A stretch of DNA of 64,000 nt from Candidatus Omnitrophota bacterium (GTDB lineage Bacteria; Omnitrophota; Gorgyraeia; Pluralincolimonadales; CAZUZR01), in contig JBDRDF010000032.1 of assembly GCA_043821025.1 (NCBI GenBank), positions 11,261 to 75,260 on the forward strand, written 5' to 3'. Below are positions 28,241 to 46,449 of this stretch, one piece after another. The position numbers and the translations under genes were made by a program. The stretch's first letter is position 1, and each line of letters begins with the position of its first letter. The notes beneath the pieces were generated by a model. It saw only the letters and a list, made by a program, of their open reading frames with translations. It was not told where the DNA came from and searched no databases.

Positions 28241-29617
28241 ATGGAAAGGGTTTTAAACCAAGAGCGTTCGTTGAAGATAGGGGTTTCCGGCGTAAGGGGC
28301 ATAGTTGGGGAGACGTTAACTCCTCAGCTTTTGGCTTCCTTTGCGGAGGCGTTTGGTTCGTATGTGGGAAGGGGAAAGGTTTTAGTCGGCTCAGATACAA
28401 GGACGTCAAAGGATATGGTAAAATATGCCGTTTTTTCTGGACTTTTATCCAGCGGATGTGAGCCAGTGGATTTGGGGATATGTCCCATCCCGACATTATT
28501 AATAAGGACAAAATATTCCAAAGCCGCGGGAGGCATAGCGATTACCGCAAGCCATAATCCGGTTCAATGGAATGCCCTGAAATTCATCAACAAAGATGGC
28601 CTATTACTAAACGCTAATCAGGCAGAGGAACTCCTAGATGTTTACCATCAGGGAGAATTTTTTAAATGCAATAATTCGGAAATTAAAAATATCAAAGTTG
28701 ATGATGGAGCTATCCCTTATCATTTAGAGAAGATATTCAATTATATAGATGTGGATGCAATACGTAGAAGGAAGTTTAGGGTGGCAATTGATTGCTGTAA
28801 TGGTGCAGGCTCGCTTATTACGCCGATTTTATTAAAGAAGTTTGGATGTGAGGTAATTTCGATTAACGTTGAACCAAATGGGTTGTTTCCTCATGACCCC
28901 GAGCCAATTTCTAAAAATATAGTTCAGATCTGTTCTTTGGTTAAATCTAAGAAGGCCGATATCGGCTTTGTCCAAGATGCCGATGCCGATCGCTTAGCCA
29001 TAGTGGATGAAAACGGAAACCCCATAGGTGAGGATTATACTTTAGTTTTAGTCGTCGACTATATCTTAAGTAAGAAGCGCGGTTCCGTAGTGACAAATCT
29101 TTCAGCAACAAAAGCTGTCGATGACGTTGCTTCCAAATATGGTTGTAGAGTAATTAGGGCTAAGGTCGGCGAGATAAACGTAGTCGAAAAGGTAGCAAGT
29201 GAAAAAGCGATTGTAGGAGGGGAGGGCAATGGCGGCGTGATAATTCCTGCCATCCATCCGTGTAGAGATAGCCTTGCTGGCATCGGAATAATATTGGAAT
29301 ATTTGGCGAAGTCGAAGCTTAAACTTTCAGAGAACGTCAAAAAGTTGCCGCGTTATTATATGATTAAGGGTAAAGTGTACTGCGAGACCGCAAAGGCACA
29401 TTCGGTTGTAAGAAGGTTGCAAAATATTTACAAGAAGGCAAAACTGACATTGTTGAATGGGATTAAGGTGGAAGCCGAAGACCATTGGATTCATATTCGT
29501 CCTTCAAATACGGAGCCCATAATTCGCGTCATAGTTGAGGCGAGGACTAAAAAGGCCGCCGACCAACTTTATAATCAAAGTATAAAAGACATTGCGGCAT
29601 TATTGAATAAGGCATGA
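28241..29617 (+). CDS. Alpha-D-phosphohexomutase (phosphoglucomutase/phosphomannomutase), tandem paralog
   Basis: It has the canonical TASHNPVQWNALKF, DADADR and GGEGNGG motifs. The start is taken at ATG 28241, 2 nt after the upstream stop. Confidence 0.7.
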   Translation: MERVLNQERSLKIGVSGVRGIVGETLTPQLLASFAEAFGSYVGRGKVLVGSDTRTSKDMVKYAVFSGLLSSGCEPVDLGICPIPTLLIRTKYSKAAGGIAITASHNPVQWNALKFINKDGLLLNANQAEELLDVYHQGEFFKCNNSEIKNIKVDDGAIPYHLEKIFNYIDVDAIRRRKFRVAIDCCNGAGSLITPILLKKFGCEVISINVEPNGLFPHDPEPISKNIVQICSLVKSKKADIGFVQDADADRLAIVDENGNPIGEDYTLVLVVDYILSKKRGSVVTNLSATKAVDDVASKYGCRVIRAKVGEINVVEKVASEKAIVGGEGNGGVIIPAIHPCRDSLAGIGIILEYLAKSKLKLSENVKKLPRYYMIKGKVYCETAKAHSVVRRLQNIYKKAKLTLLNGIKVEAEDHWIHIRPSNTEPIIRVIVEARTKKAADQLYNQSIKDIAALLNKA

Positions 29618-30588
29618 CTTTTTTTGTTATTTTGATAGCGTTATTTTTGGCTATGAATGTCGGCGCCAACAATACAGCCGCTGAGATGGAAGCGGCTTAT
29701 AGGGCTGGCGTTCGCACCAAAAAAGAGGCGCTAGTATTAATCGCTGTATTCGTTATTTTGGGCGCTATAATAGTCGGCTTGCCCGTCGTAAAAACTTTGG
29801 GCGGAGGGCTTGTTCCGCAAAGGACATTCAAAGCGTATTTTTATATCGTCTTTGTGGTAATGGCTGTTGCTGCAGTTTTCGATTTTATATCGAATATATT
29901 TAAGATATCCATTCCTACTTCATACGCGATAGTCTCTTCGATAGCTGCTGTAGGTTTATATTATAAAAGTTTATCCGTTGACAAATCTTTGATGATCTTA
30001 AAGTGGTGGATTGTTTCGCCCATAGTTGTCTTTATTGTTGTTTTTCTTGTTGGAAAATTTTTGAACCTCAAATTTATAAAATCATTAGGCAAGTTGAAAA
30101 CCAGAGGGAAGGTTAAAGCTTTATTGGGCGCTATGCTGTCTTTCTCTGGGTGTTACGTCGCCTTTGCGGGAGGGGCTAACGGTGCTGCTAAAGCAATGGG
30201 CCCGGTAGTTGCCGCAGGCATGATAGACAATCGTTGGGGTGTTTTGCTTGGTGGAGTAGGGATCGCAGCCGGTGCGCTCATCTTCGGTAAAATTGCGTTA
30301 GAGGCCGGCGATAGAGAAATTGCTGAAATCGGTTTCGTAAGAGCAATATTGATTGAGGTAATTTGCGCGACAGTTTTATTGTTGGCTTCTTTAGACGGCA
30401 TTCCTCTCTCTGTCTCTGTGACAGTGAGTTCAAGCCTTATAGGTTTAGGTTGCGCTGACTTAGGATTTCGGCAGAGCCTAAGAAGGCACCACGCCATAAG
30501 GGCAGGCTTTATATGGTTTGTTGTACCGCTAGTTTCCGTTGGGCTTACCTATTTCTTTTTGCATACCCTTGGCCATATATTTAAATAG
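29614..30588 (+). CDS. PiT-family anion permease (short form); by context possibly a CysP-like sulfate permease
   Basis: It has two PiT signature repeats (NVGANNTAAEM and FAGGANGAAKAMGPV) and about 10 TM helices. Confidence 0.55.
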   Translation: MTFFVILIALFLAMNVGANNTAAEMEAAYRAGVRTKKEALVLIAVFVILGAIIVGLPVVKTLGGGLVPQRTFKAYFYIVFVVMAVAAVFDFISNIFKISIPTSYAIVSSIAAVGLYYKSLSVDKSLMILKWWIVSPIVVFIVVFLVGKFLNLKFIKSLGKLKTRGKVKALLGAMLSFSGCYVAFAGGANGAAKAMGPVVAAGMIDNRWGVLLGGVGIAAGALIFGKIALEAGDREIAEIGFVRAILIEVICATVLLLASLDGIPLSVSVTVSSSLIGLGCADLGFRQSLRRHHAIRAGFIWFVVPLVSVGLTYFFLHTLGHIFK

Positions 30589-30600
30589 AAAATTTTTTAC

Positions 30601-30628
30601 TTGACAAAGTTTAATTTTTATGTATACT
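30601..30628 (+). promoter_or_regulatory. Sigma70-like promoter TTGACA-16-TATACT upstream of the Rrf2 gene, with an overlapping imperfect palindrome
   Basis: TTGACA is at 30601-30606 and TATACT at 30623-30628. ACTCTA-N11-TAGAGT lies at 30626-30648. Confidence 0.4.
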
Positions 30629-30657
30629 CTACTATGTTGATAGAGTTAATATAGAAA

Positions 30658-31098
30658 ATGCGAATAACTTATAAGGGAGATTACGCTTTAAAGACAATAT
30701 TGGATTTAGCACTACATTATGACGCTGGGTTGGTAACTATCCATGATTTGGCTAAACGTGCTGACATCCCTGTCAAATTCCTAGAACAGGTGCTCTTAGA
30801 TTTGAAAAGCGGGGGATTTGTAGAAAGCAGACGTGGAAAGATAGGGGGATATTATTTAGCCAAGTCCCCTTCGCAGATAAAATTGGGCGATGTTATTAGA
30901 TTTATTGATGGACCAACTGAACCTATAGCCTGCGTTAAAAGTCGATATAAGGGTTGCGAGGACATCTATAAATGCGTCTTTAGAAATATATGGCAGGAAG
31001 TAGCCCAAGCAATTTCTAATATAATTGATAATATAACTTTTGAGGACCTGGCTAATAAGGTAAAGGTTGCGCAAAAAGAGAGTATCTATTCTATTTAG
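30658..31098 (+). CDS. Rrf2-family transcriptional regulator (IscR/CymR-like) with three Cys for a possible Fe-S cluster
   Basis: It has an N-terminal wHTH (YALKTILDLALHYDAGLVTIHDLAKRADIPVKFLEQVL). Cys residues lie in IACVKSRYKGCEDIYKC. Confidence 0.7.
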   Translation: MRITYKGDYALKTILDLALHYDAGLVTIHDLAKRADIPVKFLEQVLLDLKSGGFVESRRGKIGGYYLAKSPSQIKLGDVIRFIDGPTEPIACVKSRYKGCEDIYKCVFRNIWQEVAQAISNIIDNITFEDLANKVKVAQKESIYSI

Positions 31099-31114
31099 AA
31101 AGGAGAGATAAGCA

Positions 31115-31840
31115 GTGGGTTTATTAGAGAAAAAAGAGGACATAAGAGAACTGGTAGATACTCTAAATTTTAAACAGAAAGTGGACAGGTCCTTAGCCCT
31201 GATAAAAGAGGCTTATGAGAAATACGGCGAAGGCCTGGTGGTAGCCAATAGTTTGGGCAAGGATTCGATGGCGGTTTGGGATTTAGCCAAAAAGGTTAGC
31301 CCTAATATACGGGGATTTATTGTTACGACGCGTTTTAAGCCTAAAGAGACTATTCAGTTTATGTATGAGACTGTCGCGCGTTACCCCGAGCTTAAAATTT
31401 ATAAAAGTGATGTAGAAATACCAGATAAACTTTATGAAACCGACCCAGATAGATGCTGCGATTTATTAAAAGTAGAGCCGACGCGTCGGGCGATTGAAGA
31501 AATGAAGGTAAAATGCTGGGTTACGGGCTTACGTTGCACTGAAGGAAGAACACGCACAGATTTTAAGGAAGTTGAGGAGCGCGACAAGGGCCTGATTAAA
31601 CTAAATCCTATTCTTATTTGGAAAGAAAGAGAGGTCTGGCAATATCTGGCTCTCAACGGTGTGAAAGTAAACCCCCTATATGCCCAAGGTTACAGGTCTT
31701 TGGGCTGTGCGCCCTGCACAAATATTACGAGTGAAGAAGATGAGCGTGCTGGGCGTTGGATTGGCACCAGCAAATGTGGCGGAGAATGCGGGATTCATAC
31801 CAGGCCTTTAAAAATAAATGTAGAAGGAGACGGGATTTGA
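31115..31840 (+). CDS. cysH: Assimilatory adenylyl-sulfate/phosphoadenylyl-sulfate reductase (CysH family; the Fe-S Cys pairs suggest the APS-reductase type)
   Basis: A GTG start is preceded by AAAGGAGAG. It has the PAPS-reductase fold, a CC...CxxC signature (DRCCDLLK, LGCAPC) and a C-terminal KCGGECGIH motif. Confidence 0.7.
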   Translation: MGLLEKKEDIRELVDTLNFKQKVDRSLALIKEAYEKYGEGLVVANSLGKDSMAVWDLAKKVSPNIRGFIVTTRFKPKETIQFMYETVARYPELKIYKSDVEIPDKLYETDPDRCCDLLKVEPTRRAIEEMKVKCWVTGLRCTEGRTRTDFKEVEERDKGLIKLNPILIWKEREVWQYLALNGVKVNPLYAQGYRSLGCAPCTNITSEEDERAGRWIGTSKCGGECGIHTRPLKINVEGDGI

Positions 31841-32808
31841 TTAAAAACATCTTCTTAATAATATTGGTGATCTTCTTTGCTTTTAATATGGGCGCAAGCG
31901 GCATTGCTCCTTCTTTTGCTTCCACTTACGGCGGAAAGTTAATAAAGAAGAAGAATGCCTTAATCCTGTTCGGGCTTTTTGTAATCTTAGGTGCTGTGTT
32001 TTTAGGAAGGAATGTAACTCTGACTCTGGGTAAAAATTTACTTGCCCAAGAATTAATAAGTTTTAATGTTGCTTTAATAATCTTAGGCTCAGCAGCCTTA
32101 GGTTTGTTTGTAGCTAATATTTTAAAGATTCCCCAGTCTACAAGCCAGGTTACTGTAGGCGCAATTGTGGGTGCAGGATTATATTTTCAGCATTTAAATC
32201 TTAAGACCTTATTTTTTAAGATACTTCCTATGTGGGTTATTTTGCCTTTATTATCTTATATTTTAACCCTATTGATTTATAAGACGATATATCCGCCGCA
32301 TCATAATAACCTGCATATTTACCAAAAAATATTTACCAATGAAAAGAAATTAAAGCTGTCAGCTTTAATAGTAAGTTGCTAGGTTGCTTTTGCTATCGGC
32401 ACAAACAATGTAGCAAATGCAGTGGGGCCTCTATCCGCAGCAGGGATTTTAGGGATAGGCTCAGGGCTCTTTTTAATTGCTCCTCTCTTTGGAGTAGGGG
32501 CTTGGGTTATGGGCAAAGGGCCCCTTGAGACCGCGGGAAAAGAAATAGTCCCCCTGGGATTGGTTTCCAGCGCTCTGGTTTCTTTTGTAACCGCGAGCTT
32601 ATTAATCTTTGCCTCAACTTTAGGTATCCCCCAATCATTGGTGCAGCTTAACCTCGCTTCCATATTTGCCATAAGTTCGGTAAAAAATGGCCATAAGTAT
32701 ACCTTAAACCAGCATATCACCAGAAAGACATTTTTTGTCTGGATAATTACGCCTTTGATTTCATTGGGTATATCGTATTTATTATTGTCTTTATTTTTAA
32801 GAATATAA
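31837..32808 (+). pseudogene. Second PiT-family (CysP-like) permease interrupted by an in-frame TAG (32380-32382); a pseudogene, split gene or sequencing error
   Basis: A TTG start overlaps the cysH stop (TTGA) and is preceded by GAAGGAGA. The first half ends ...LIVSC*. The same frame continues VAFAIGTNNVANAVGPLSAAG, which is the second PiT signature. No frameshift is involved. Confidence 0.45.
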
Positions 32809-32809
32809 T

Positions 32810-33208
32810 ATGCTTATCTTAGAAAAAGATTTATTAGAAAAGATGTTGCAGCAAATTAAAGAAGAATTTCCTAATGAGGCATGCGGAATTCTGGCAGGCC
32901 GAGAGGGAAGGGTCGAAAAGGTTTACAAAATGAGCAATACAGATAAAAGCCCTTCTACGTATTTTATGGATGCAAAAGAGCAACTTTTGGTAATGAAACA
33001 GATACGTAATTTAGGACTGGATATGGTCGGCATATATCATTCGCACGTCGCCAGTACTGCATACCCCTCTCTACATGATGTGGAATTGGCTTTTTATCCT
33101 GAGGTTTCGTATGTTATTGTGTCGTATAAAGACAAAGATAATTCCACTGTTAAATCATTTAAAATAAAAGAAGGAAAGATAATGGAAGAAGAGATAAAAA
33201 TAGAATGA
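32810..33208 (+). CDS. JAMM/MPN+ metalloprotease (Mec+/CysO-cleaving type deubiquitinase-like)
   Basis: It has the JAMM motif E(ACGILAG)...HSHVASTAYPSLHD. It is 132 aa. Confidence 0.7.
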   Translation: MLILEKDLLEKMLQQIKEEFPNEACGILAGREGRVEKVYKMSNTDKSPSTYFMDAKEQLLVMKQIRNLGLDMVGIYHSHVASTAYPSLHDVELAFYPEVSYVIVSYKDKDNSTVKSFKIKEGKIMEEEIKIE

Positions 33209-34236
33209 GCCTTATACTAGTTGGCACAAATCACAAATTTAGTCCGATTGAAATGAGGGAGAAAATCGCCTTTTCTAAAAAGATGCTTAATAATGCCTTG
33301 GCTGAATTGACGAGCTTTAAGTGGATTAAAGCAGCGGTTATACTTTCTACCTGTAATAGAGTAGAGTTGTACGCAGATACGTCGGACATTTATATGGGAG
33401 TTAGAGCATTGAAAGATTTTCTGTCAAGTTATCATCGCTTGGAATTGAATAAGATAGAGCCATATCTTTATACATATATAGATAAAGAAGCAATCCTACA
33501 TTTATTTAGTGTATCTAGTGGGATCGATTCTCAAATTATAGGCGAACACCAAATTCTAGAGCAAGTAAGAGTTGCCTATAAACAAGCAAGGGCAGCTAAC
33601 CTTACAAATCCATTTTTAGATACGATATTTAAAGAAGCGGAAAGGATTTCCTTAAAAATAAGACAAGAGACCGAAATCTCAAAAGATAAGACCTCCATAG
33701 CGAGAATAGTAATGGAACTTATAAGAACAAAAAGTGATTTTATCAAGGTTAAAAAGATATTGATTATCGGTGTAGGTAAGATATCCGAGTTAGTAGTTAG
33801 GCATTTAAAAAAAGAAGAGATAGATGTAGTCTTTATCGCCAACAGAACTTATGAAAGAGCGTGCCAATTGGCGAGATGCATTAATGCGAAAGCGATAGGT
33901 TTTGATAGGCTTAAAGAGAAATTAAAGGAGGTTGATATAGTCATCAGCGCAACCTCCAGTCCGCATTTGATATTAAAAAAGGAAGATCTGGTGGACGTTA
34001 AAAAGCCATTGCTGATTATCGATTTGGCTGTGCCACGGGATGTGGAGTCGGAAGCAAGATATATGGAGGGTATCGACCTTTTTTGTTTAGATGACTTGAA
34101 TTTTATAATAGAAAAAAATTTAAATGGAAGAAGACAACAGATTCCCAATGCTTTAAGGATTATAGAAAAAGAGGTAGAAAATCTGTGCTTAACAGAATAT
34201 TTAGAGTTGGAACTCGAACCAGTCCGCTTGCCCTAA
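33205..34236 (+). CDS. hemA: Glutamyl-tRNA reductase (HemA), short form
   Basis: It has the LSTCNRVELY catalytic-Cys motif and an NADPH-binding segment (LIIGVGKISELVVRHL). It overlaps the JAMM gene by 4 nt. Confidence 0.7.
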   Translation: MSLILVGTNHKFSPIEMREKIAFSKKMLNNALAELTSFKWIKAAVILSTCNRVELYADTSDIYMGVRALKDFLSSYHRLELNKIEPYLYTYIDKEAILHLFSVSSGIDSQIIGEHQILEQVRVAYKQARAANLTNPFLDTIFKEAERISLKIRQETEISKDKTSIARIVMELIRTKSDFIKVKKILIIGVGKISELVVRHLKKEEIDVVFIANRTYERACQLARCINAKAIGFDRLKEKLKEVDIVISATSSPHLILKKEDLVDVKKPLLIIDLAVPRDVESEARYMEGIDLFCLDDLNFIIEKNLNGRRQQIPNALRIIEKEVENLCLTEYLELELEPVRLP

Positions 34237-35243
34237 AGCAAGTCAATGAGGTCGTAACTTCTTTAAAGAGATTCTATCCAGAGTTCCAATTTGAGATAGT
34301 AGGCATAGATACATATGGCGATAAGGATAAGATTACTCCTATATCAGAAGTAGAAGGCAGCGATTTCTTTACCAAAGAGATAGATGAAGCCCTTTTAAAA
34401 GGGGAGATCGATTTCGCTATCCACAGCGCTAAGGATTTGCCTGATAATTTAGCGCCCGGCTCTTTTATCGCCGCTATTACTAAGTCCGTTGACCCATCTG
34501 ATGTGTTGATAGCAAGGGATAATTTGAAAATTGACGAACTCAAAACTGGGGCCAAGATAGGGACAAGTAGCCTAAGGCGCAAGGCCCAACTTAAAAACTA
34601 TCGTAAGGACCTTCAGATTATAGATATTCGGGGAAATGTTGAAGAAAGGTTGAAGTTACTAGATGAGACCGACTTAGATGGTATCGTCGTTGCTGCTGCG
34701 GGGCTTATTCGGTTGGGCTTAGAAGACCGTATAACCCAAAGGATTCCTTTTGATATTTTAAGACCTCACCCATTACAGGGCTCTTTGGCAATAGCAGTTC
34801 GTCAGGCTGACGAGGAAATAATATCTTTAATGGAGAAGATCGATTCCCGAAGGAAGATAATATTTATCTGTGTAGAAAACGCCTCTCGCAGCCAGATAGC
34901 CGAAGGATTCCTAAGACATTTTGGTTGGCAAAGATTCGTAGCCAGAAGCGGCGGAATTAAACCAGCGGATAAAATCGACCCATTAGCTATCGAAGTAATG
35001 AAGGAAGTGGAAATAGATATTTCCAAACAGAAGCCAAAACTAATTTCTAAAGATTTATTATCCGAGCAGTTGGTCACAGTTATTAGTATGGGTTGTTTAG
35101 AAAGCTGTCCTGCAATTAAGATCGATCAAAATTGGCAGATTGAAGACCCTAAAGGTAAGTCCATAGAAAGATTTCGCCGGGTTAGAGATATGATAAAAGA
35201 AAAAATAAAGAAGCTTACAGAAAAAGGATGCCATGGTTCATAA
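34185..35243 (+). CDS. Porphobilinogen-deaminase-like (HemC domains 1-2) fused to a LMW-PTP/ArsC-like domain; the HemC cofactor domain 3 appears absent
   Basis: The N-terminal 215 aa align to HemC (RVGTRTSPLALKQ...GTSSLRRKAQL...GNVEERLKLLD...AAAGLIRLGL). The C-terminus has a CX5R P-loop (IIFICVENASRSQIAEGF) and an MGCLESCP motif, in place of the dipyrromethane-binding domain. Confidence 0.5.
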   Translation: MLNRIFRVGTRTSPLALKQVNEVVTSLKRFYPEFQFEIVGIDTYGDKDKITPISEVEGSDFFTKEIDEALLKGEIDFAIHSAKDLPDNLAPGSFIAAITKSVDPSDVLIARDNLKIDELKTGAKIGTSSLRRKAQLKNYRKDLQIIDIRGNVEERLKLLDETDLDGIVVAAAGLIRLGLEDRITQRIPFDILRPHPLQGSLAIAVRQADEEIISLMEKIDSRRKIIFICVENASRSQIAEGFLRHFGWQRFVARSGGIKPADKIDPLAIEVMKEVEIDISKQKPKLISKDLLSEQLVTVISMGCLESCPAIKIDQNWQIEDPKGKSIERFRRVRDMIKEKIKKLTEKGCHGS

Positions 35244-35493
35244 ATTTCGTTGCCCAGGAAATATCTCTTTGAACTTAAAGGCAGAAATTCTTAGATGTCC
35301 AAAATGTGGCTACGAAGTAGAGATATTTTCTGATGAGCTTAGAAGAGTATGCCCCAAATGTACTACTGAAGTATATCGCAAGAGACTACCTTCCTGTATT
35401 GACTGGTGTCCTGCAGCAAGAGAATGTATTGGTGATAAAAAATGGAAGGAGTTAAAGATAGGGGGTAGAAATGAAAAAGAGAAAAATTATTAA
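35233..35493 (+). CDS. Small Cys-rich zinc-ribbon protein (hypothetical)
   Basis: It has CPKCGYEV...CPKCTTEV plus CIDWCPAAREC. It overlaps its neighbours. Confidence 0.3.
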   Translation: MVHKFRCPGNISLNLKAEILRCPKCGYEVEIFSDELRRVCPKCTTEVYRKRLPSCIDWCPAARECIGDKKWKELKIGGRNEKEKNY

Positions 35494-38619: not shown

Positions 38620-39519
38620 ATGTTTCTGGTAGAAATCGGATATCAGATACTAAAAGAATTCTTTTCGCTAACATTCAAGGTTATTCCTTACTTTATGTTA
38701 GGAATTGCCTTTGGTGCGCTTCTGGAAGCGTATTTTAAACCAGAGTTCGTCTTTAGATACTTAAAGAAAGGAATTTCCTCGGTGGTTAATGCAAGTATTT
38801 TAGGAGCTGCTCTGCCGGGTTGCGCTTGTGTTACTATGCCAATGGCAGAGGGTTTAAAGAGAAAAGGCTCAAGATTAGGGACATTATCAGCGTTTATTAT
38901 GGTTTCACCACTTTTGAGTCCTCATACAGTTGTATTGACTTATGCGATGCTGGGTTGGAAATTTACTTTTGCCAGAATTATTTTCTCATTTTCAGGTGCG
39001 ATCCTTTTAGGAATTTTATTCAATTATTTTGAAAAGCGGCACGTAAAAGGTTTTGCTTTACCTGCTGAATCTGGGACCGAATGTAAATCTTGTCCTGACT
39101 TCGAGCAGGGCAAGAAATTAAGTTTTTTAAAAAGTTTTATCCTTATTGCCAAGAGCCTCGGTAAATATTTTTTCCTGGGCATGTTTATTGCCAGTCTCTT
39201 GACCGTTCTTATTCCTGAAGAGGCTATACCAAAATATATTGGCTCATCCGGCATATTCGCTTATCTGGCTGCAGCATTGGTAGGGATTCCGGTATATATT
39301 TGTGAAGGAGAAGAGATACCTATTACCTTAGCCCTATTAAAACTTGGTTTAGGCAAAGGTCCTTCTTTTACCTTTCTTTTAGGTTCGATAGGAACATGTA
39401 TTCCCACTATGCTTATGGCACAAAAGATAATTGGTAAGCGGCCAGTCATTTTTTATATTATTGGATGGTTTGTGTTTGCAATCAGTTCAGGGCTATTATT
39501 TAGTCTATTTTTCCATTAA
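38620..39519 (+). CDS. Putative permease (DUF318/YraQ-like) with a GCAC motif
   Basis: It has about 8 TM helices and an LPGCACVTMP motif. Confidence 0.4.
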   Translation: MFLVEIGYQILKEFFSLTFKVIPYFMLGIAFGALLEAYFKPEFVFRYLKKGISSVVNASILGAALPGCACVTMPMAEGLKRKGSRLGTLSAFIMVSPLLSPHTVVLTYAMLGWKFTFARIIFSFSGAILLGILFNYFEKRHVKGFALPAESGTECKSCPDFEQGKKLSFLKSFILIAKSLGKYFFLGMFIASLLTVLIPEEAIPKYIGSSGIFAYLAAALVGIPVYICEGEEIPITLALLKLGLGKGPSFTFLLGSIGTCIPTMLMAQKIIGKRPVIFYIIGWFVFAISSGLLFSLFFH

Positions 39520-39544: not shown

Positions 39545-40798
39545 ATGAAAGTAATCTATTCTGGTAATCTTTTCCATGAAGCACAGAAGTATATCCCGGG
39601 TGGAGTAAATAGTCCTGTCCGGTCTTTCAGGGCTGTAGGTGGGTATCCAATATTTGTAAATCATGGGAAGGGTTCAAAGGTTTATAATGAATGTGGCAGG
39701 GAATTTATTGATTATTGCCAAAGTTTCGGTGCATTAATTTTAGGCCACGCTCACCCAAAAGTTGTACGAGAGTTAAGAAAGGTAGTTAACAAAGGTACCA
39801 CTTTTGGAACTCCAACAAAATTAGAGACAGAGTTAGCTAAAATTATCATCGAAGACGTTCCTTCGATACAAAAGATTAGGTTTACTAACTCAGGCACAGA
39901 GGCGGTAATGGGCGCGATCAGACTTGCCAGGGCTTATACAAAAAGAGATAAGATTATAAAATTCGAGGGCTCGTACCATGGTCATGCGGATTATTTATTG
40001 GATTGCGAAGGGGTTCCGAGGGATTTTACAAGGCACACATTAATTACCCCTTATAATAATATAAAGGTAGTTAAAGATTTAATAGAGAAGCATGAAGAGG
40101 ATGTAGCCGCAATAATCGTTGAGCCGATAGCAGCAAATATGGGGGTAGTTTTACCAAAAGATGATTTTCTAAGCGAGTTAAGAAAAATTGCTAGTAAATA
40201 TAATATAATTTTAATTTTCGATGAAGTTATTACTGGTTTTAGACTGATTTTTGGAGGCGCTCAGAAAATATTTGATATTAAACCGGATTTGACGTGTCTA
40301 GGAAAAATAATCGGCGGGGGATTACCGATAGGCGCTTTTGGAGGCAGAAGAGAAATTATGCAACTTTTGGCACCTGAAGGACCTGTCTATCAAGCAGGGA
40401 CTTTCTCAGGCAACCCTGTTTCTATGAGCGCAGGCATAAGTACGTTGAGGATTTTGCACGAATGTAATCCATATAGGAAGGTGGAAGGAATGACTAAATA
40501 TCTTTGTGGGAAAATTAAAGAGTACGCGAATAAACATAAGATCGGGATAGGAATAAATTCTTTTGGTTCCATGTTTAGTATTTTCTTTACAAATAAACAG
40601 ATAACGGATTATAGTATAGCTAAAGCCCAAGATACATCTTTGTTTAAAAAATTCTATCACGGTTTATTAAAAAACGGTGTTTATTTTTCGCCCTCAGGTC
40701 TTGAAGCAGATTTTATTTCGTTAGCACACACGCAAGAAGATATGCAGAAGACCTTACGGGCAGTTGATAAAACATTTAGAAATTTGAGGAGGAGTTAA
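39545..40798 (+). CDS. hemL: Glutamate-1-semialdehyde 2,1-aminomutase (HemL)
   Basis: It has the [18 protein letters not shown] signature. It is a class III aminotransferase. Confidence 0.8.
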
Positions 40799-40799
40799 A

Positions 40800-41939
40800 A
40801 TGGGCATAACCATTTATTTAAACGGCAAAAAAGAAACGGTCGAAGAAAATTTAAACATTTCGAAGCTCCTTGAGGTCAAGAAGATTAGGCCGGAAGTTGT
40901 AACGGTGGAATTAAATGGGCAGATTATCGAAAAGCCAAAATACGCAGATGCGTTTATAAAAGATAAAGATAAAGTCGAAGTCGTATATTACATGGGAGGC
41001 GGTATGCCTTTTAGCGACAGAATTGCAGAAAACGTTTTGGAACTAATCGGTCGAACGCCGATCGTTAGGCTAAATAAAATCATAGAATCAGATATGGCGG
41101 AGATATTAGCCAAACTAGAGCAATTTAACCCAGGAGGAAGCGTAAAGGATAGGATTTGTATCTCCATGTTCGAAGACGCAGAAAAGAAAGGCTTACTTAA
41201 AAAGGGCTCGACCATTATTGAGCCGACAAGCGGGAATACGGGAATTGGTTTAGCTATGGTTGCCGCAGTTAAGGATTATAGATGTATCCTTACTATGCCA
41301 GAAACGATGAGTTTAGAAAGAATATATATCCTTAAATCTTATGGCGCAGAGGTTGTGCTTACCCCAGGTGTCGAAGGCATGCAAGGAGCGATTAAAAAAG
41401 CAGAAGAATTGCTAAAAAAGACACCTAATAGTTTTATGCCCCAGCAGTTTAAAAATCCTGCAAATCCTCAAATTCACCGTTTAACTACTGCTAAAGAGAT
41501 ATTGGAAGCAACCAATGGAAACCTAGATGCCTTTGTTGCTGGTGTAGGAACTGGTGGTACAATTACAGGGGTAGGGGAGGTTTTAAAAAAACATAATGCC
41601 TCGATTAAGGTAATTGCAGTTGAGCCCAAAAAGAGCGCTGTTTTATCTGGAGGACAGGTTGGCCCACATAAAATCCAAGGCATCGGTGCCGGTTTTGTTC
41701 CAGAAGTTTTAAATCGTTCGATCATAGATCAAATAATCCAGGTTGATGACGACGATGCCTTTAGGACTTCAAGGAGGCTTGCAAAAGAGGAGGGTCTGTT
41801 TGTAGGTATTTCAGCAGGGGCTGCAGCTTGGGCAGCATTAAACGTCGCTAAGGATTCAGGCAAGGGCAAGAGGGTAGTCGTAGTTTTGCCAGATACGGGT
41901 GAAAGATATTTTTCTATGCATCAATATTTTGAGGCATAA
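40800..41939 (+). CDS. ThiS/MoaD-like sulfur-carrier domain (ending GGG) fused in-frame to cysteine synthase (CysK/CysM family); an internal SD+ATG at 41004 could also give free CysK
   Basis: The N-terminal 68 aa ([26 protein letters not shown]...[33 protein letters not shown]) fit the ThiS pattern. The cysteine synthase part follows ([24 protein letters not shown]). GGGAGG at 40994-40999 precedes ATG 41004. Confidence 0.65.
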
Positions 41940-41957
41940 CGTAAACGGCGAGATTAA

Positions 41958-42852
41958 GATGAAAACAAAAGATGCAAAAATAACCTTAGATTTGGACGAG
42001 TTTAGGAAGGGCGGAATTTTAAAACAAAGGCAGAAAAACTATTTTATCCTTCGAACTCGCATACCCGGTGGATATCTAAGGGCCGATATGTTGTCAAAAT
42101 TTATTCGAATCGCCAAAAAATATGGCAGAGGATATGTTCATCTCTCAACGAGGCAGGCTATAGAAATCGCCTGGATTAAAATAGAAAAAATAGATAACCT
42201 CATAAAGGACCTTAAAAGAGTGGGTATCTTAAGAGGTGCTTGCGGTCCGCGTTCTCGCAACATAGTGGCGTGTCCTGGCTCAACCGTTTGCAGGTACGGT
42301 TTTGCGGATACAGAAAAATTGGCTGCCAAATTCGATAAGTACTTTTTTGGCAAAGATGTTCCAAAGAAATTTAAGATAGGACTGACGGGTTGTCTTAATT
42401 CTTGTGCTAAACCCCAGGAAAACGATATTGGGTTTTTGGCTGTTGGTGAGCCCGAATGCGATTTAGACAAATGCACTGGTTGTATGCTATGTGCCAAGGT
42501 TTGTGAGAAGGTTTGCGCTCGAGGCAAAAGGGAACCTGCGATCGTCATGGATGAGAATAAGGAACCTGTATATAGAAGGGAGTTTTGCTTCTTTGAGGGT
42601 GATTGTGTAAGGATATGCCCAGTTAATGCCTGGAAAATAAAACGAGTAGGATATACGGTATTTTTAGGAGGGAGGGTCGGCCGTTTCCCTACGTTTGGGT
42701 TTAAAATAAAGGAATTTGCTACCGAACAAGAAATTTTTAAAATAACCAAAAGAGCAATAGCCTGTTATAACAGAATTGCCGAAAAAGGCGAGCGCTTCGG
42801 AGAAACTATAGAAAGGATAGGAATAGAAGGGGTAAAAAAACAGGTGCTATGA
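41958..42852 (+). CDS. Small siroheme-[4Fe-4S] sulfite reductase (AsrC/DsrA-like, with an inserted ferredoxin domain)
   Basis: The siroheme-FeS Cys motif is Cx5C...Cx3C (ACGPRSRNIVACPGSTVC, GCLNSCAKP). The ferredoxin insert reads CTGCMLCAKVCEKVC...CVRICP. Confidence 0.6.
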
Positions 42853-43091
42853 CAAAAATAAAAGTCGATCTAGTTTTAGATTTGAAAAATACACCTTGCC
42901 CAATAAATTTTGTTAAGACAAAACTAAAGCTCGAACAAATGAATAAAGGGGAGGTTTTAGAAGTCCTTTTAGATGACGGTGATCCCATCACTAATGTTAC
43001 CGTAAGCGTAAAAGAAGATGGGCATCAGATTTTGAAGGTCGAGAAAATAAATGACCATTGGAAATTGGTCGTTAAAAAAGTTGGAGAATAA
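42849..43091 (+). CDS. TusA-like sulfurtransferase / sulfur carrier (SirA/YedF/YeeD family)
   Basis: It is 80 aa. It has LDLKNTPCPINFVKTKL (CPxP-type motif). Confidence 0.55.
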   Translation: MTKIKVDLVLDLKNTPCPINFVKTKLKLEQMNKGEVLEVLLDDGDPITNVTVSVKEDGHQILKVEKINDHWKLVVKKVGE

Positions 43092-43096
43092 ATTAA

Positions 43097-43909
43097 ATGC
43101 GATTAAGGGAAGATCAAATTGAGAGGTATTCAAGGCAAATTATTCTACCTAATGTTGGTGGGAAAGGTCAGGAGAAGCTTTTGAGTGCCAAAGTTTTAAT
43201 CATTGGCGCAGGAGGCTTGGGTTCTCCTTGTGCTTTATATTTGGCCGCGGCAGGCATAGGGAAAATTAGCATAGTAGACTCAGACGAAGTCGAGCTTAAT
43301 AATTTACAGAGACAAATCTTGCATTCAACCAAGGATGTAGGTAGGTCGAAAACAGAATCAGCAAAAGACAGGCTCAATGCCATTAATCCAGATTTAGAGG
43401 TCATAACTTATAAAATCAGGCTCAAGTCGGAGAATATCTTAGATATCATAAAGGATTATGATATAATTGTTGATGGCTCAGATAACTTTCCTACAAGGTA
43501 TTTAGTCAATGATGCCTGTGTTCTTTCGAAAAAGCCTTTATCTCATGGGGGCATATTTAGATACGATGGGCAGGCGATTACAATTCTTCCAGGTGAAAGT
43601 GCTTGTTATAGATGCCTATTTCCTACTCCCCCTCCGCCTGGACTTGTGCCAAGTTGCCAGGAAGCCGGGATTTTAGGCGTAGTTGCCGGAGTCATTGGCA
43701 CTATTCAGGCAAACGAAGTTTTAAAATATATATTAGGAATCGGAGACCTTTTAGCCGGAAAGCTGTTGGTATTTAACGCCTTAGATTCAAGCTTTAGACA
43801 AGTGAAGGTTCCAAAAGATCCTAAATGTCCAGTTTGTGGAGAAAATCCCACGATAACAAAATTAATAGATTATGAACAGTTCTGTAGCTTACAAATAAGG
43901 AAGGTGTAA
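43097..43909 (+). CDS. ThiF/MoeB/MoeZ-type E1-like adenylyltransferase (no rhodanese domain)
   Basis: It has the nucleotide loop VLIIGAGGLGSPCALYLAAAGIGKISIVDSD. The zinc motif is CYRC...CPVC. Confidence 0.7.
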   Translation: MRLREDQIERYSRQIILPNVGGKGQEKLLSAKVLIIGAGGLGSPCALYLAAAGIGKISIVDSDEVELNNLQRQILHSTKDVGRSKTESAKDRLNAINPDLEVITYKIRLKSENILDIIKDYDIIVDGSDNFPTRYLVNDACVLSKKPLSHGGIFRYDGQAITILPGESACYRCLFPTPPPPGLVPSCQEAGILGVVAGVIGTIQANEVLKYILGIGDLLAGKLLVFNALDSSFRQVKVPKDPKCPVCGENPTITKLIDYEQFCSLQIRKV

Positions 43910-43911
43910 AG

Positions 43912-45147
43912 TTGAGCTACGTAAGAGGCTTAAAATGTAGGGAATGCGGAAGGGAATATCCGAAAGAAGCGCTCTTCGTTTGCGAATATTGCTTCGGCTC
44001 TTTGGAGGTGGACTACGACTACTCTGCGATAAAGAAGAAACTGACACGCGAGGTAATTGCATCTCGTTCGAAAGATCTGTGGAGATACCAAGAGCTGTTG
44101 CCGCTCGATTCAAAGCCGCAGGATGGTTTATATTCGGGTTTCACGCCGCTTATAAGGTCAACGAATTTGGCGAAGGTATTGAAAGTAGACGAACTTTACA
44201 TAAAAGATGATTCCGTCTGCCATCCGACGCTTTCATTTAAGGATAGGGTTGTATCGGTTGCAATTTCAAAGGCAAAGGAGTTTGATTTCTCTGTTGTTGC
44301 ATGTGCTTCAACCGGAAATTTGGCGAATTCGGTCTCCGCATTAGGCGCTATCGCCAGATTAAAGCGTTATATATTTATCCCTGCCGATTTGGAATTGGGA
44401 AAGGTAGTCGGCTCTTTAATTTACTCCCCGAATTTAGTTGCAGTCGAAGGAAATTACGACGAGGTGAACCGACTCTGCGCCGAAATTGCGTCGAGATATA
44501 GATGGGCATTCGTCAATATAAATATCAGGCCATATTATGCTGAGGGTTCAAAGACCTACGGATACGAGATTGTAGAACAATTGGGTTGGAGGACGCCAAA
44601 ACATATCATAGTTCCGGTTGCGGGCGGTTCCTTAATCTCAAAGATTTGGAAAAGCTTTAAAGAATTTCAAAAATTAGAGTTGATCAACAAGATTGATACA
44701 AAAGTTTATGCGGCGCAACCAACAGGATGTTCGCCAGTCGTAACAGCGATAAAGGAAAATTCCGATATAATCAAACCTGTTAAGCCGAAGACGATAGCGA
44801 AATCACTCGCCATAGGAAATCCGGCGGACGGATATTATGCGGTCCAGACCGTAAAGGATTCAGGCGGATGGGCAGAAGATGTAACCGATGAGGAAGTAAT
44901 CGAAGGGATAAAATTGCTTGCCGAGACCGAAGGAATATTTACCGAAACTGCAGGAGGAGTTACAGTAGCAGTTGCAAAGAAATTAATCGAACAAGGTCGA
45001 ATCCCTCGGGATGAATCCATTGTAATTTCAATTACGGGCAATGGCTTAAAAACGCAGGAGGCAGTCCAGGAACATATAGGAAGGGCCGTTAAGATAAAAC
45101 CTACCCTTGCATCTTTTGAAGAACAGGTAATGGTGAAAGGGAAATAA
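43912..45147 (+). CDS. Threonine-synthase-like fold-type II PLP enzyme with an N-terminal zinc ribbon (candidate sulfur-carrier-dependent homocysteine or cysteine synthase)
   Basis: A TTG start is preceded by AAGGAAGGTG. It has CRECG...CEYC and the PLP-lysine motif HPTLSFKDRVVS. The overall sequence is ThrC-like. Confidence 0.55.
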   Translation: MSYVRGLKCRECGREYPKEALFVCEYCFGSLEVDYDYSAIKKKLTREVIASRSKDLWRYQELLPLDSKPQDGLYSGFTPLIRSTNLAKVLKVDELYIKDDSVCHPTLSFKDRVVSVAISKAKEFDFSVVACASTGNLANSVSALGAIARLKRYIFIPADLELGKVVGSLIYSPNLVAVEGNYDEVNRLCAEIASRYRWAFVNINIRPYYAEGSKTYGYEIVEQLGWRTPKHIIVPVAGGSLISKIWKSFKEFQKLELINKIDTKVYAAQPTGCSPVVTAIKENSDIIKPVKPKTIAKSLAIGNPADGYYAVQTVKDSGGWAEDVTDEEVIEGIKLLAETEGIFTETAGGVTVAVAKKLIEQGRIPRDESIVISITGNGLKTQEAVQEHIGRAVKIKPTLASFEEQVMVKGK

Positions 45148-45165
45148 AAATAAAGGAGCGTGCAT

Positions 45166-45441
45166 ATGGCGATTAAAGTAAGAATACCACAACCACTACA
45201 AGGTTTGACGAACCACCAACCTGAGGTTGAAGCTACCGGAACGACCGTGAAAGAATTAATTGATGATTTAGAGCACAAATACCCCGGCATCAAAGACAGA
45301 ATCTGCGATGAATCAGGCAAAGTGCGAAGGTTCGTTAATTTCTATGTCAACGAAGAAGACATAAGGTTTTTGGAGCGGGAACAAACGAAGTTGAAAGACG
45401 GCGATGAAGTTTCAATAATTCCGGCAATCGCCGGGGGATGA
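45166..45441 (+). CDS. CysO/MoaD/ThiS-like ubiquitin-fold sulfur carrier protein with a free C-terminal GG
   Basis: It is 91 aa and ends ...VSIIPAIAGG*. SD sequence AGGAG lies 8 nt upstream of the ATG. Confidence 0.6.
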   Translation: MAIKVRIPQPLQGLTNHQPEVEATGTTVKELIDDLEHKYPGIKDRICDESGKVRRFVNFYVNEEDIRFLEREQTKLKDGDEVSIIPAIAGG

Positions 45442-46193
45442 AAATGATGGAAGTAGAGCTCACCGCAAAAGACAGAGAAAGATATAACAGACAGATGTTT
45501 ATCGAGGACTGGGGCGAAGCGGGACAGAAAAAGCTAAAGAATGCCGAGGTTTTTATCTCAGGCGTAGGCGGTTTAGGAAGCCCCGTCGCTATATATCTTG
45601 CAGTCGCAGGGGTAGGCAAGATAAGGGTATGCGATTTTGATGTACCAGAACTTTCTAATCTAAATAGGCAGATATTGCACCACGATGCTCGCATAGGCCT
45701 TAATAAAGCACTTTCTGCAAAAAAGACGTTAGAAGTTTTAAATCCTACGGTGGAAATTAAAGAATTCCCTGAAAGGATAGAAGCTGATAATGTCGATAAA
45801 TTAGTTGGCACAAGTCAGATAATCATCGATTGTATGGATAATTTTGATACGCGTTTAATCCTAAATGAATGCGCCATACGAAAAAAGATACCTTTGGTAT
45901 TTGCGAGTGTTTGGGGCTTGACCGGTTATTTAAGTTTTTTTCATGTGCCTGAAACTCCCTGTCTTGCATGTATATTTAGAGAACCACCCCCTAGAGAGAA
46001 ATTTCCTGTAGTAGGAGCGACCCCTGGGGTAATCGGTTGCTTGGAGGCGCTCGAAGTATTAAAGTATATTACCGGCATTGGTCAGAATTTAAAAAATAAA
46101 CTTTTAATTTGGGACGGGACTACTGTGGATTTTAGAAAAGTCTCCATTAAATATGATAAAGATTGTCCCGTATGCGGCACTTTACACCGTTAA
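45438..46193 (+). CDS. Second ThiF/MoeB-type E1-like adenylyltransferase
   Basis: It has VFISGVGGLGSPVAIYLAVAGVGKIRVCDFD. The zinc motif is CLAC...CPVC. It overlaps the carrier gene by 4 nt. Confidence 0.7.
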   Translation: MKMMEVELTAKDRERYNRQMFIEDWGEAGQKKLKNAEVFISGVGGLGSPVAIYLAVAGVGKIRVCDFDVPELSNLNRQILHHDARIGLNKALSAKKTLEVLNPTVEIKEFPERIEADNVDKLVGTSQIIIDCMDNFDTRLILNECAIRKKIPLVFASVWGLTGYLSFFHVPETPCLACIFREPPPREKFPVVGATPGVIGCLEALEVLKYITGIGQNLKNKLLIWDGTTVDFRKVSIKYDKDCPVCGTLHR

Positions 46194-46208
46194 AGAGGAG
46201 GTAAAGAT

Positions 46209-46449
46209 AATGGCAAAGAAGATGGTGCATTTAATATTCCCCCAAAAGTTGATTAAGAAGGCAGTCATTTATACTATGGCAAAAAAATTTGACGTTATCC
46301 CCAATATCCGCCGCGCGAAGATTACCGAATCGGTTGGGGAGGTTGTATTAGAACTTGAGGCATCGAAGGATAATTTAGAGAAGGGTATAGCATATTTAAG
46401 GAAGTTGGGTGTTAAAGTAGAGCCTATTGTCGGGGATATCGTAGAGTAA
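46209..46449 (+). CDS. Small ACT/NIL-like domain protein (hypothetical)
   Basis: It is 80 aa (MAKKMVHLIFPQKLIKKAVIYTMAKKFDVIPNIRRAKITE...). SD sequence GAGGAGG is present. Confidence 0.3.

Follow-up and report, generated by a model that had tools for sequence, protein, structure and literature searches.

Which products does a single array of sulfate-reduction, tetrapyrrole and sulfur-carrier genes serve when it encodes two different ubiquitin-like carriers? The question is raised by a stretch of 64,000 nucleotides (hereafter the window) from a Candidatus Omnitrophota bacterium (assembly GCA_043821025.1, contig JBDRDF010000032.1, positions 11,261 to 75,260 of the forward strand). In it, about 21 genes follow one another on the plus strand, from the gene for an Rrf2-family regulator (30658) to a NIL-domain gene (46449), and they most likely make up one sulfur-assimilation operon. 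Judging from the sequence, this operon probably serves to reduce sulfate and to hand on the sulfur, by way of its two carriers, for cysteine and homocysteine. Gene families were called by Pfam and NCBIfam profile scans of the window proteins and motifs were read from the translations; in this way all the families listed in an earlier note on this DNA, which had been made from the letters and open reading frames (ORFs) without database searches, were recovered in the same order, at the same places and on the plus strand. The array is a variant of known thiocarboxylate systems and not a new kind of pathway. The new points are a ThiS-CysK fusion as an arrangement of sulfur carrier and cysteine synthase, a NIL protein resembling the C2 domain of MetN as conserved partner of a ThrC-like/CysO-like pair, and a tetrapyrrole trunk pathway embedded in such an operon.

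Carriers, candidate acceptor enzymes and the NIL protein

The carrier module consists of the following genes:

32810–33208, plus strand: JAMM/MPN+ metalloprotease (PF14464, 80.7 bits; HSHx7SxxD and an upstream EACG)
40800–41939, plus strand: ThiS-CysK fusion (ThiS domain 40800–41003, short linker, CysK of the O-acetylserine-sulfhydrylase type)
42849–43091, plus strand: TusA/SirA-type sulfur-transfer protein (PF01206, 74.6 bits; conserved Cys-Pro)
43097–43909, plus strand: E1a, MoeB/UbaA-like adenylyltransferase (PF00899, 294 bits; 270 aa, no rhodanese match)
43912–45147, plus strand: ThrC-family pyridoxal phosphate (PLP) enzyme with N-terminal zinc ribbon, a MetM-like candidate homocysteine synthase (PF00291, TIGR00260)
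45166–45441, plus strand: CysO/MoaD-like sulfur carrier, MetO-like (PF02597, 71.4 bits; ends in PAIAGG followed by the stop)
45438–46193, plus strand: E1b, accessory ThiF-family adenylyltransferase (PF00899, 239.8 bits; 251 aa, no rhodanese match)
46210–46449, plus strand: stand-alone NIL-domain protein of 79 aa (PF09383, 57.9 bits)

The CysO-like carrier is the predicted partner of the ThrC-like enzyme, not of CysK. One genome per species was scanned for the ThrC-like gene, and in at least 568 species genomes this gave relatives sharing 68% identity or more with the window protein; 80 loci were kept (those named here carry L numbers), and the number of evaluable loci varies by feature. In 77 of 78 related loci the ThrC-like and carrier genes are direct neighbours. 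In the window the carrier gene starts 18 nt downstream of the ThrC-like gene (probable start 45166, the protein with that start being found as an exact sequence in a public collection) and encodes 91–93 aa, with PDB matches to 4n6e_B (2e-21) and to Mycobacterium tuberculosis CysO (3dwg_C, 3e-20). The ThrC-like protein passes the TIGR00260 thrC cut-off, has the PLP lysine motif SFKDR and is called "threonine synthase" by the Prokaryotic Genome Annotation Pipeline (PGAP). A tblastn search of a plasmid collection gave a homologue in Nonomuraea gerenzanensis that is 49.4% identical over 407 aa, zinc ribbon included, together with a 91-aa carrier that is 50.5% identical to the window carrier over its full length, and this pair stands directly behind an S-adenosylmethionine (SAM) riboswitch (RF00162, 68.7 bits). 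The thrC products of Priestia and Staphylococcus are 34–38% identical to the window protein; because the alignments begin at residues 41–58 for these two, and at 41–65 when solved threonine synthases are included, these enzymes lack the zinc ribbon.

A pair of this kind is MetM/MetO of Streptomyces albulus. The system reported by Hasebe et al. (2024) has a ThrC homologue, often mis-annotated as threonine synthase, which makes homocysteine from O-phosphohomoserine and the thiocarboxylate of a carrier, with a SAM riboswitch preceding metM-metO. The GapMind entry lists for it a JAMM (Mec) hydrolase and a MoeZ-type E1 (an E1 plus rhodanese). In both systems a threonine-synthase homologue adjoins a carrier of about 90 aa of the ThiS/MoaD family ending in Gly-Gly, and for the JAMM protease and E1 that MetM/MetO needs, the window offers a JAMM with an intact motif and E1a and E1b without rhodanese. 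The differences are that neither a SAM nor any other riboswitch was found in the window at the Rfam gathering score, that TusA is present instead of the rhodanese of MoeZ, that a third partner, NIL, is almost always there and in some cases forms one protein with the carrier, whereas no NIL gene follows the Nonomuraea pair, and that here the MetM/MetO-like module is embedded in a sulfate-reduction operon. Assignment of the pair to a putative MetM/MetO type is supported by the Nonomuraea pair and its riboswitch arrangement. The claim that cysteine, and probably homocysteine, are made from thiocarboxylates thus finds support in the near-constant pairing, in the riboswitch-linked Nonomuraea pair and in a ThiS that is fused to CysK or encoded upstream of it. 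In L001 an extra 324-aa PLP enzyme similar to CysK/CysM (13580–14554) lies between the ThrC-like gene and the CysO-like carrier, which may thereby have a second acceptor in the style of CysM.

The other carrier is part of the cysteine synthase. Its ThiS domain (TIGR01683, 61.9 bits, cut-off 37.45) ends in YYMGGG, with the glycine codons at 40995–41003; the earlier note had allowed that its carrier-like domains might fail family assignment, and both carriers pass curated family cut-offs. BLASTP aligns the ThiS domain with the CysO-like carrier of the window over the last 16 residues only (E = 0.008), with no detectable overall similarity. The CysK domain scores 468 bits on the cysK model TIGR01139 (cut-off 351), with SVKDR as PLP lysine motif; on TIGR01138, the model for enterobacterial cysM, its 304.6 bits fall short of the cut-off (394). 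In the PDB it is matched best by CysK/OASS-A enzymes, M. tuberculosis CysK1 (2q3b) among them, and M. tuberculosis CysM is not among the top 60. In an AlphaFold2 model of the fusion, residues 63–70, between the two folded domains, have a predicted local distance difference test score (pLDDT) below 50, so that a flexible junction is predicted. The fusion is present in at least 120 protein clusters and forms one 50%-identity family among 1.8 billion representatives; YYMGGG is conserved without exception at the junction, and variation begins with the residue after it and in the length of the linker. Separate translation of CysK from the Met after GGG was rejected, that residue being M, Q, E, F, L, W or S among 14 homologues. 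Among 55 loci, ThiS is fused to CysK in 34 and is a separate gene in 20, mostly directly upstream of CysK and with a tail of 1–28 residues after GGG; it never ends at GGG. A literature search found no earlier description of a ThiS-CysK fusion, which is weak negative evidence.

Fusions and tails are equally common on the CysO-like carrier. Across 84 loci, the invariant PAIAGG is followed directly by the stop in 12, by a tail of 1–8 residues in 42 and by a longer one in 7; the carrier is fused in frame to E1 in 8 (L023, L025, L028, L031, L048, L049, L056 and L063, with a 2–3-residue linker) and to NIL in 13 (L044, L058, L064, L065, L067–L070, L073, L076 and L079–L081, with a Lys/Ala/Ser-rich linker of 4–25 residues; confirmed by Pfam in L073). 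Adenylation of a carrier requires a free C-terminal glycine, so the fusions and tails on both carriers imply routine proteolytic maturation, for which the JAMM protease of the array is the obvious candidate. Its zinc-site motif E...HxHx7Sx2D is present in the translation (EACG and HSHVASTAYPSLHD), and its best PDB matches are 2kks (2e-28) and PfJAMM1 (5lda, 5e-13). HcyD and QbsD trim short carrier tails, and HvJAMM1 of Haloferax cuts a linear SAMP1-MoaE fusion exactly after Gly-Gly. In that Haloferax protein, as proposed here, an N-terminal ubiquitin-like domain is fused to its partner enzyme and its Gly-Gly is blocked until the JAMM cut; the Haloferax fusion was, however, engineered (natural ubiquitin-like–MoaE fusions being only catalogued) and related to molybdopterin, whereas the fusions seen here, ThiS-CysK, CysO-E1 and CysO-NIL, are natural.

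E1a is 82–85% identical to the single E1 of L001–L006 and is, on this comparison, the ancestral E1 of the cluster, only one E1 being ancestral. It has two CxxC pairs and an SCQEAG loop. E1b, which shares about 40% identity both with E1a and with the E1 of relatives and is present in 5 of 65 loci, also has two CxxC pairs and lacks the Cys of the "C-x-E-A-G" loop of E1a (FPVVGATPGVIG versus PSCQEAGILG); if this loop Cys matters for sulfur transfer, E1b may only adenylate. The idea that two E1s imply two parallel pathways had to be given up: relatives have both carriers and a single E1, the orthologue of E1a, and therefore one E1 normally serves both carriers. Nor is an E1 without rhodanese beside TusA an unusual feature, as had been thought, since it is a described hallmark of the class 4e operons of Iyer et al. 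(2006).

The NIL protein (probable start 46210, from homologue lengths) contains no cysteine. Its AlphaFold2 model (pLDDT 88.6) has a ferredoxin-like beta-alpha-beta-beta-alpha-beta fold which superposes on the methionine-binding C2 domain of Escherichia coli MetN; Foldseek comparison with that domain in 3dhx_A and 3tui gives template-modelling (TM) scores of 0.82–0.87 and root-mean-square deviations of 1.0–2.2 Å. NIL/ferredoxin proteins are also needed in an unrelated route to homocysteine, the DUF39 pathway (PMC5764234). This pathway of methanogens and Desulfovibrio (DUF39, NIL/ferredoxin and COG2122) ties a NIL protein genetically to homocysteine formation in anaerobes. It differs in that its NIL protein has a ferredoxin domain, absent from the cysteine-free protein of the window, in that DUF39 and COG2122 are not in the array and in that its substrate is aspartate semialdehyde, where O-phosphohomoserine would be expected here. 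Because of the MetN-C2 fold, the need for NIL in the DUF39 pathway and the carrier-NIL fusions, we hypothesize that NIL is likely a ligand-sensing or adaptor component of the homocysteine branch.

The relatives carry the phylum labels Omnitrophota, Saganbacteria/Margulisiibacteriota, WOR-1, Elusimicrobiota, Nitrospirota, Caldisericota and Armatimonadota, and a core of ThiS plus CysK, ThrC-like, CysO-like and NIL genes is met again in 80 or more genomes belonging to several candidate phyla. NIL is present in 60 of 65 evaluable loci, any E1 in 43, both E1 types in 2, CysK upstream in 55 (with ThiS in 47), TusA in 37 and the siroheme sulfite reductase (Sir) in 35 of the same number, and JAMM in 26 of 48. 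The invariant core is the ThrC-like enzyme, the CysO-like carrier and NIL, usually with ThiS and CysK before them. On the independent Omnitrophota contigs of L001, L005 and L006 the order is Rrf2, CysH, PiT, JAMM, hemA, hemC, cobA/hemD, hemB, hemL, ThiS-CysK, Sir, TusA, ThrC-like, CysO-like, E1 and NIL; Rrf2 holds the same position as in the window in L005 and L006 and is not within the L001 stretch. A second architecture without Sir, TusA and E1 was found in L073 (474–5395), where a PAPS (3'-phosphoadenosine 5'-phosphosulfate)-reductase-family protein, 31–39% identical to CysH, is followed by an ABC ATPase, JAMM, ThiS, CysK, an ABC permease, an NMT1/SsuA-like binding protein, the ThrC-like enzyme, the carrier-NIL fusion and Rrf2; L044, L058, L064–L067, L070, L076 and L079–L081 are similar. 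This suggests that in such loci the carrier module draws on another source of sulfur.

Predicted sulfate reduction, tetrapyrrole genes and limits of the array

The genes for sulfate uptake and reduction and the signals at the two ends of the array are these:

29614–30588, plus strand: PiT-family permease 1 (PiT1), CysP-like (PF01384; NCBIfam CysP sulfate-permease model below cut-off)
30601–30628, plus strand: closest match to a sigma-70-like promoter, TTGACA-16-TATACT (agrees with the consensus at 11 of 12 positions), lying 30 nt upstream of Rrf2
30658–31098, plus strand: Rrf2-family regulator, IscR/CymR-like (PF02082, 128.8 bits; TIGR00738 above cut-off)
31115–31840, plus strand: CysH-type reductase of adenosine 5'-phosphosulfate (APS) or PAPS (PF01507; NF002537, 173.9 bits, cut-off 154)
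31756–32808, plus strand: PiT-family permease 2 (PiT2), two ORFs matching the N- and C-terminal halves of PF01384
41959–42852, plus strand: small siroheme sulfite reductase with inserted ferredoxin domain (PF01077, 102.3 bits; PF03460, 67.9 bits)
46473–46517, plus strand: intrinsic terminator at the end of the array (14-bp stem with 8 G-C pairs, 7-nt loop, T-run)

CysH, 83–93% identical to that of relatives, has in its translation the motifs CC...CAPC and C-terminal ECGIH of the Fe-S APS-reductase type. Sir (297 aa; probable start 41959, again with an exact sequence of that start in a public collection) has the motifs CPGSTVC and CLNSC, that is, the Cx5C...Cx3C cysteines for its predicted siroheme and Fe-S cofactors. 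Its best PDB match is the C-terminal half of the F420-dependent sulfite reductase Fsr (7np8_A, residues 342–604, 9e-39). This half of Fsr (7np8, 7npa) is the best solved relative, covers Sir residues 18–289 and shares with it the siroheme/Fe-S cysteine motifs and the inserted ferredoxin domain; the F420H2-oxidising N-terminal half of Fsr is absent from Sir, which stands alone. The gene had been described as an AsrC/DsrA-like siroheme sulfite reductase, of which the siroheme sulfite reductase is upheld and the AsrC or DsrA identity rejected, with an AsrC score of 141.6 bits (cut-off 324) and the C-terminal half of Fsr as closest solved relative. The gene begins 19 nt after ThiS-CysK and is translationally coupled to TusA. 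Motif searches of all six frames of the window found no ATP sulfurylase (Sat), APS kinase or CysN, in agreement with the earlier statement that ATP sulfurylase is not in the window; as a positive control, the same patterns find Sat in L028 and L077 and CysN in L058, inside the cluster, which supports the link to sulfate.

PiT2 is 47–57% identical to the PiT of L001, L005 and L006 and is the orthologue of the cluster permease. Its true start is probably near 31840, and the nominal 85-nt overlap with CysH is an artefact of its uncertain start. The gene is broken by an in-frame TAG at 32380–32382, where all relatives and PiT1 have Tyr. Recoding was rejected, since the TAG is a single-base change of a conserved Tyr codon in a gene otherwise intact. 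Either a nonsense mutation has arisen recently, for which the extra PiT1 perhaps makes up, or the base was called or assembled wrongly. PiT1 had been counted into the array. Its PiT family is not in question, but its membership is doubtful because it shares only about 30% identity with the cluster PiT of relatives, overlaps at its start with the stop of the phosphomutase gene before it and lies upstream of the best promoter-like site, and we place it probably outside the operon unit. Immediately upstream are two tandem phosphoglucomutase/phosphomannomutase paralogues (26893–29617), the second of which overlaps the PiT1 start.

From Rrf2 to NIL the intergenic spacing ranges from -52 to +25 nt and no internal terminator comparable to the final one was found in the array; tight spacing and the lack of a strong internal terminator fit with co-transcription. 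A strong terminator at the array end had been predicted and was found, with its stem-loop at 46473–46507 and the T-run after it. The promoter is a consensus match only, promoter-like sites in the region not being above shuffled expectation. The Rrf2 protein has three Cys spaced Cx7Cx5C. Of the flanking genes of the window, 10 ORFs were scanned with Pfam and the rest judged by eye. Directly downstream of the array is a copper-resistance block (46566–56254) with a repressor similar to CsoR, an outer-membrane factor, a membrane-fusion protein similar to CusB that has a heavy-metal-binding domain, and, both identified by eye, a 1087-aa resistance-nodulation-division-type pump and a copper P-type ATPase.

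Between JAMM and ThiS-CysK lie the tetrapyrrole genes and several inserts:

33205–34236, plus strand: glutamyl-tRNA reductase HemA, short form (TIGR01035, 327 bits, profile positions 2–330 of 416)
34185–35243, plus strand: hydroxymethylbilane synthase HemC with two domains (residues 1–222), fused to an LMWP/ArsC-like domain (223–352) (PF01379, PF01451)
35233–35493, plus strand: Cys-rich zinc-ribbon protein of 86 aa, lineage-specific insert (weak zinc-ribbon Pfam matches)
35471–36265, plus strand: 4Fe-4S dicluster protein of 264 aa with C-terminal PF27217, insert (Fer4 families on residues 6–70)
36262–37665, plus strand: CobA-HemD, uroporphyrinogen-III C-methyltransferase/uroporphyrinogen-III synthase fusion (PF00590, PF02602; TIGR01469, 275.9 bits)
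37647–38618, plus strand: porphobilinogen synthase HemB (PF00490, 488 bits)
38620–39519, plus strand: ArsP_1-family permease, lineage-specific insert (PF03773, 162.5 bits)
39545–40798, plus strand: glutamate-1-semialdehyde aminomutase HemL (PF00202, 238.5 bits; syntenic in relatives)

That siroheme-precursor genes are placed beside the sulfite reductase is borne out, hemA, hemC, cobA-hemD, hemB and hemL all being recovered in the same array; the predicted product of CobA-HemD is precorrin-2. HemA (343 aa) lacks the C-terminal dimerisation domain, as do its relatives of 343–360 aa. The gene called hemC-like is indeed a HemC, with two domains (TIGR00212 positions 2–229 of 293), fused to the LMWP/ArsC-like domain, on which an arsenate-reductase model scores 95 bits. 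The fusion recurs in two Logan assemblies; the HemC of relatives is unfused and 226–245 aa long. The cluster-type HemC genes all end after domain 2 ("...IDSR") without domain 3, in the window as in L001 (2883–3620), L002 (5558–6238), L005 (5472–6164) and L006 (5643–6353), and in the window the LMWP/ArsC-like domain with a CVENASRS P-loop stands in place of domain 3, which in E. coli carries the dipyrromethane-binding cysteine. What had been listed as a ferredoxin does contain Fer4; it is the 264-aa Fer4 plus PF27217 protein, preceded by the 86-aa zinc-ribbon ORF that had not been listed. The two co-occur in L063 (Elusimicrobiota), where the pair adjoins Sir. A role of the Fer4 protein as dedicated electron donor of Sir is not supported: its homologues, all with PF27217, are widespread over many phyla and contexts, and it is absent from most related clusters.

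The ArsC-like domain, the zinc ribbon, the Fer4 protein and the ArsP_1 permease are absent from the syntenic clusters L001–L006. Arsenic-resistance-like genes are thus interleaved with the heme genes at 34851–36265 and 38620–39519, and it is a matter of speculation that they are linked to PiT-type permeases also admitting arsenate. A PiT-type CysP permease and CysH together with siroheme-synthesis genes are likewise found in the cysH operon of Bacillus subtilis (cysH-cysP-sat-cysC-ylnDEF), which differs in encoding the last siroheme steps (methyltransferase, dehydrogenase, ferrochelatase), whereas the window has the trunk to precorrin-2 without the last two steps.

Proposed route, precedents and alternatives

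The route that we propose would begin with entry of sulfate through a PiT/CysP-type permease and its activation by an ATP sulfurylase encoded elsewhere. The Fe-S CysH would convert APS to sulfite and the small Fsr-C-like reductase would bring sulfite to the level of sulfide, with the embedded hemA-hemL-hemB-hemC-cobA/hemD genes supplying precorrin-2 as the precursor of its cofactor. The reduced sulfur would not be released for free use; E1a (here also E1b) would first adenylate the two carriers at their C-terminal glycine and the TusA relay would load it, the product being a protein thiocarboxylate. In the cysteine branch, JAMM would have to free the ThiS carrier from CysK after Gly-Gly, and the freed thiocarboxylate would give its sulfur to the aminoacrylate intermediate of CysK to yield cysteine. 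In the homocysteine branch, the CysO/MetO-type carrier would give sulfur to the ThrC-like, MetM-type enzyme, converting O-phosphohomoserine to homocysteine. The same JAMM could then hydrolyse the carrier-amino-acid adducts, by analogy with CysO-CysM-Mec+ and HcyS-HcyD. NIL would bind methionine or a related ligand and so regulate the homocysteine branch, with Rrf2 as the proposed transcriptional regulator.

Both halves of this route have precedents. The biochemistry of HcyS-HcyF-HcyD-MetY of Wolinella succinogenes was reportedly worked out by Krishnamoorthy and Begley in 2011. Wolinella belongs to class 4e of Iyer et al. (2006), in which a ThiS/MoaD carrier, JAB, E1 without rhodanese, SirA/TusA, PAPS reductase and sulfite reductase occur together. 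The window likewise combines carrier, JAB, E1 without rhodanese, SirA/TusA, PAPS/APS reductase and sulfite reductase in one array, and in both types the carrier is made with a C-terminal extension for removal by JAB. In Wolinella, however, the acceptor is MetY, an O-acetylhomoserine sulfhydrylase, whereas the window array has no Cys_Met_Meta_PP protein and the ThrC-like enzyme takes its place; the window has in addition NIL, the tetrapyrrole genes and another carrier, which is joined to CysK, and is without the ATP sulfurylase and/or APS kinase of class 4e.

For cysteine, the CysO-CysM-Mec+-MoeZ pathway of M. tuberculosis is said to have been described by Burns and colleagues in 2005. As in our proposal, a carrier thiocarboxylate is there the sulfide donor for a PLP enzyme of the CysK/CysM family and a JAMM encoded in the same locus releases the cysteine. 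The M. tuberculosis carrier is CysO-like, its synthase of the CysM (Rv1336) type and its E1 MoeZ, whereas in the window the carrier of the cysteine synthase is of the ThiS type and fused at the N-terminus, the synthase is of the OASS-A/CysK type and the E1 lacks rhodanese. CysO-CysM neighbourhoods are classes 4c and 4d in Iyer et al. (2006).

A wider reading, in which Omnitrophota and neighbouring candidate phyla make both sulfur amino acids without free sulfide, keep their carriers as inactive fused or tailed precursors, use a single JAMM both to mature the carriers and to release the products, employ NIL as a methionine-responsive third component of a MetM/MetO-type system and have recruited an OASS-A CysK to a ThiS thiocarboxylate, is put forward tentatively, all these elements together being somewhat less probable than the contrary.

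Several observations weigh against the sulfate-to-amino-acid route. The CysK domain is of the ordinary OASS-A type, its nearest solved relatives use free sulfide and it could do the same; to our knowledge, thiocarboxylate use has been demonstrated for no CysK of this type, and it is from the ThiS fusion and the gene context only that we infer it here. MetM orthology was judged through the Nonomuraea pair as a proxy. In genomes labelled "Unc6"/WS2 the ThrC-like gene is cut to a 152-aa C-terminal fragment (L002 12243–12958, L003 2514–2972, L004 9437–9895) and carrier, E1 and NIL are intact; gene order is partly kept in L002 and L004, and since in these two the carrier was retained when the ThrC-like gene decayed, it may have a further use. 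The permease proper to the cluster, PiT2, carries a stop codon, the cluster HemC lacks domain 3, and the window is without ATP sulfurylase, serine acetyltransferase (cysE), homoserine kinase (thrB) and the last two steps to siroheme.

Some of these points would fit a conventional assimilation of free sulfide, in which the ThrC-like protein would be a threonine synthase and the carriers, E1s, TusA and JAMM would serve thiamine, molybdopterin or tRNA thiolation. By its score CysK is indeed a standard cysK, with a likeness to enzymes that use free sulfide, the ThrC-like protein clears the threonine-synthase cut-off and is annotated accordingly, the decayed ThrC-like genes of L002 and L004 leave carrier, E1 and NIL behind, and Iyer et al. 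(2006) read the adjacency of ThiS and cysteine synthase as a link between thiamine and cysteine. However, the array contains no gene for ThiG, ThiH, MoaE or tRNA thiolation, ThiS either forms one protein with CysK or is encoded directly upstream, the ThrC-like and CysO-like genes go together almost without exception, canonical ThrC reaches no more than 34–38% identity and has no zinc ribbon, and the SAM riboswitch on the actinomycete orthologues points to methionine, not threonine; we consider this explanation unlikely. It is distinctly improbable that the system is one of sampylation-like modification, with E1 joining the carriers to lysines of CysK, the ThrC-like protein or other enzymes and JAMM removing them, for regulation and not for sulfur supply. 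E1a reaches 344 bits on the model of the SAMP-activating UbaA, the carrier matches SAMP1 and JAMM the desampylase model, all below their cut-offs, and in Haloferax the SAMP1-MoaE linkage inhibits the enzyme and JAMM reverses this. Yet sulfur-reduction genes and the TusA relay dominate the neighbourhood and the closest characterised relatives, M. tuberculosis CysO and the MetM/MetO type, are sulfur donors; in archaea, moreover, the two roles are not mutually exclusive.

The likeness of the reductase to the sulfite-reductase half of Fsr might also suggest sulfite detoxification, protective as with Fsr in methanogens, or organosulfur scavenging, with the amino-acid enzymes loosely associated. The sulfonate/nitrate-type ABC transporter genes that replace Sir, TusA and E1 in some relatives and the missing ATP sulfurylase would agree with this, but the array also contains CysH and a CysP-like permease, the clusters of L028, L077 and L058 include Sat or CysN, and Sir is coupled to TusA and closely follows ThiS-CysK, so that such a function appears very improbable. 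Finally, the source is a metagenome-assembled genome and one gene has an in-frame stop, as might be expected if unrelated fragments had been joined in assembly, a refutation which the earlier note had itself envisaged. The same gene order is found, however, in assemblies made independently and from different samples, neither G+C content nor skew changes over the window, and neighbouring genes overlap along the array. Since the same array is found in independent contigs and its core in so many genomes, it is not chimeric, and an assembly artefact is hardly credible.

Cysteine and homocysteine synthesis by way of thiocarboxylates is known from few cultivated bacteria (Mycobacterium, Wolinella, Streptomyces). 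The operon described here suggests that both routes exist side by side, fed directly by sulfate reduction, in many uncultivated anaerobes. In the public annotation the reductase is "hypothetical", NIL is a "ferredoxin" or a "methionine transporter ATPase" and the pathway is not recognised; with the ThrC-like enzyme, the reductase and NIL annotated as they are, metabolic reconstructions of these phyla would be wrong in predicting methionine auxotrophy or in where they place threonine synthesis. For work on a JAMM-dependent maturation of prokaryotic ubiquitin-like proteins, the fusions that occur naturally (ThiS-CysK, carrier-E1 and carrier-NIL) are ready material, and they point to NIL as an uncharacterised partner of a pathway described only in 2024.

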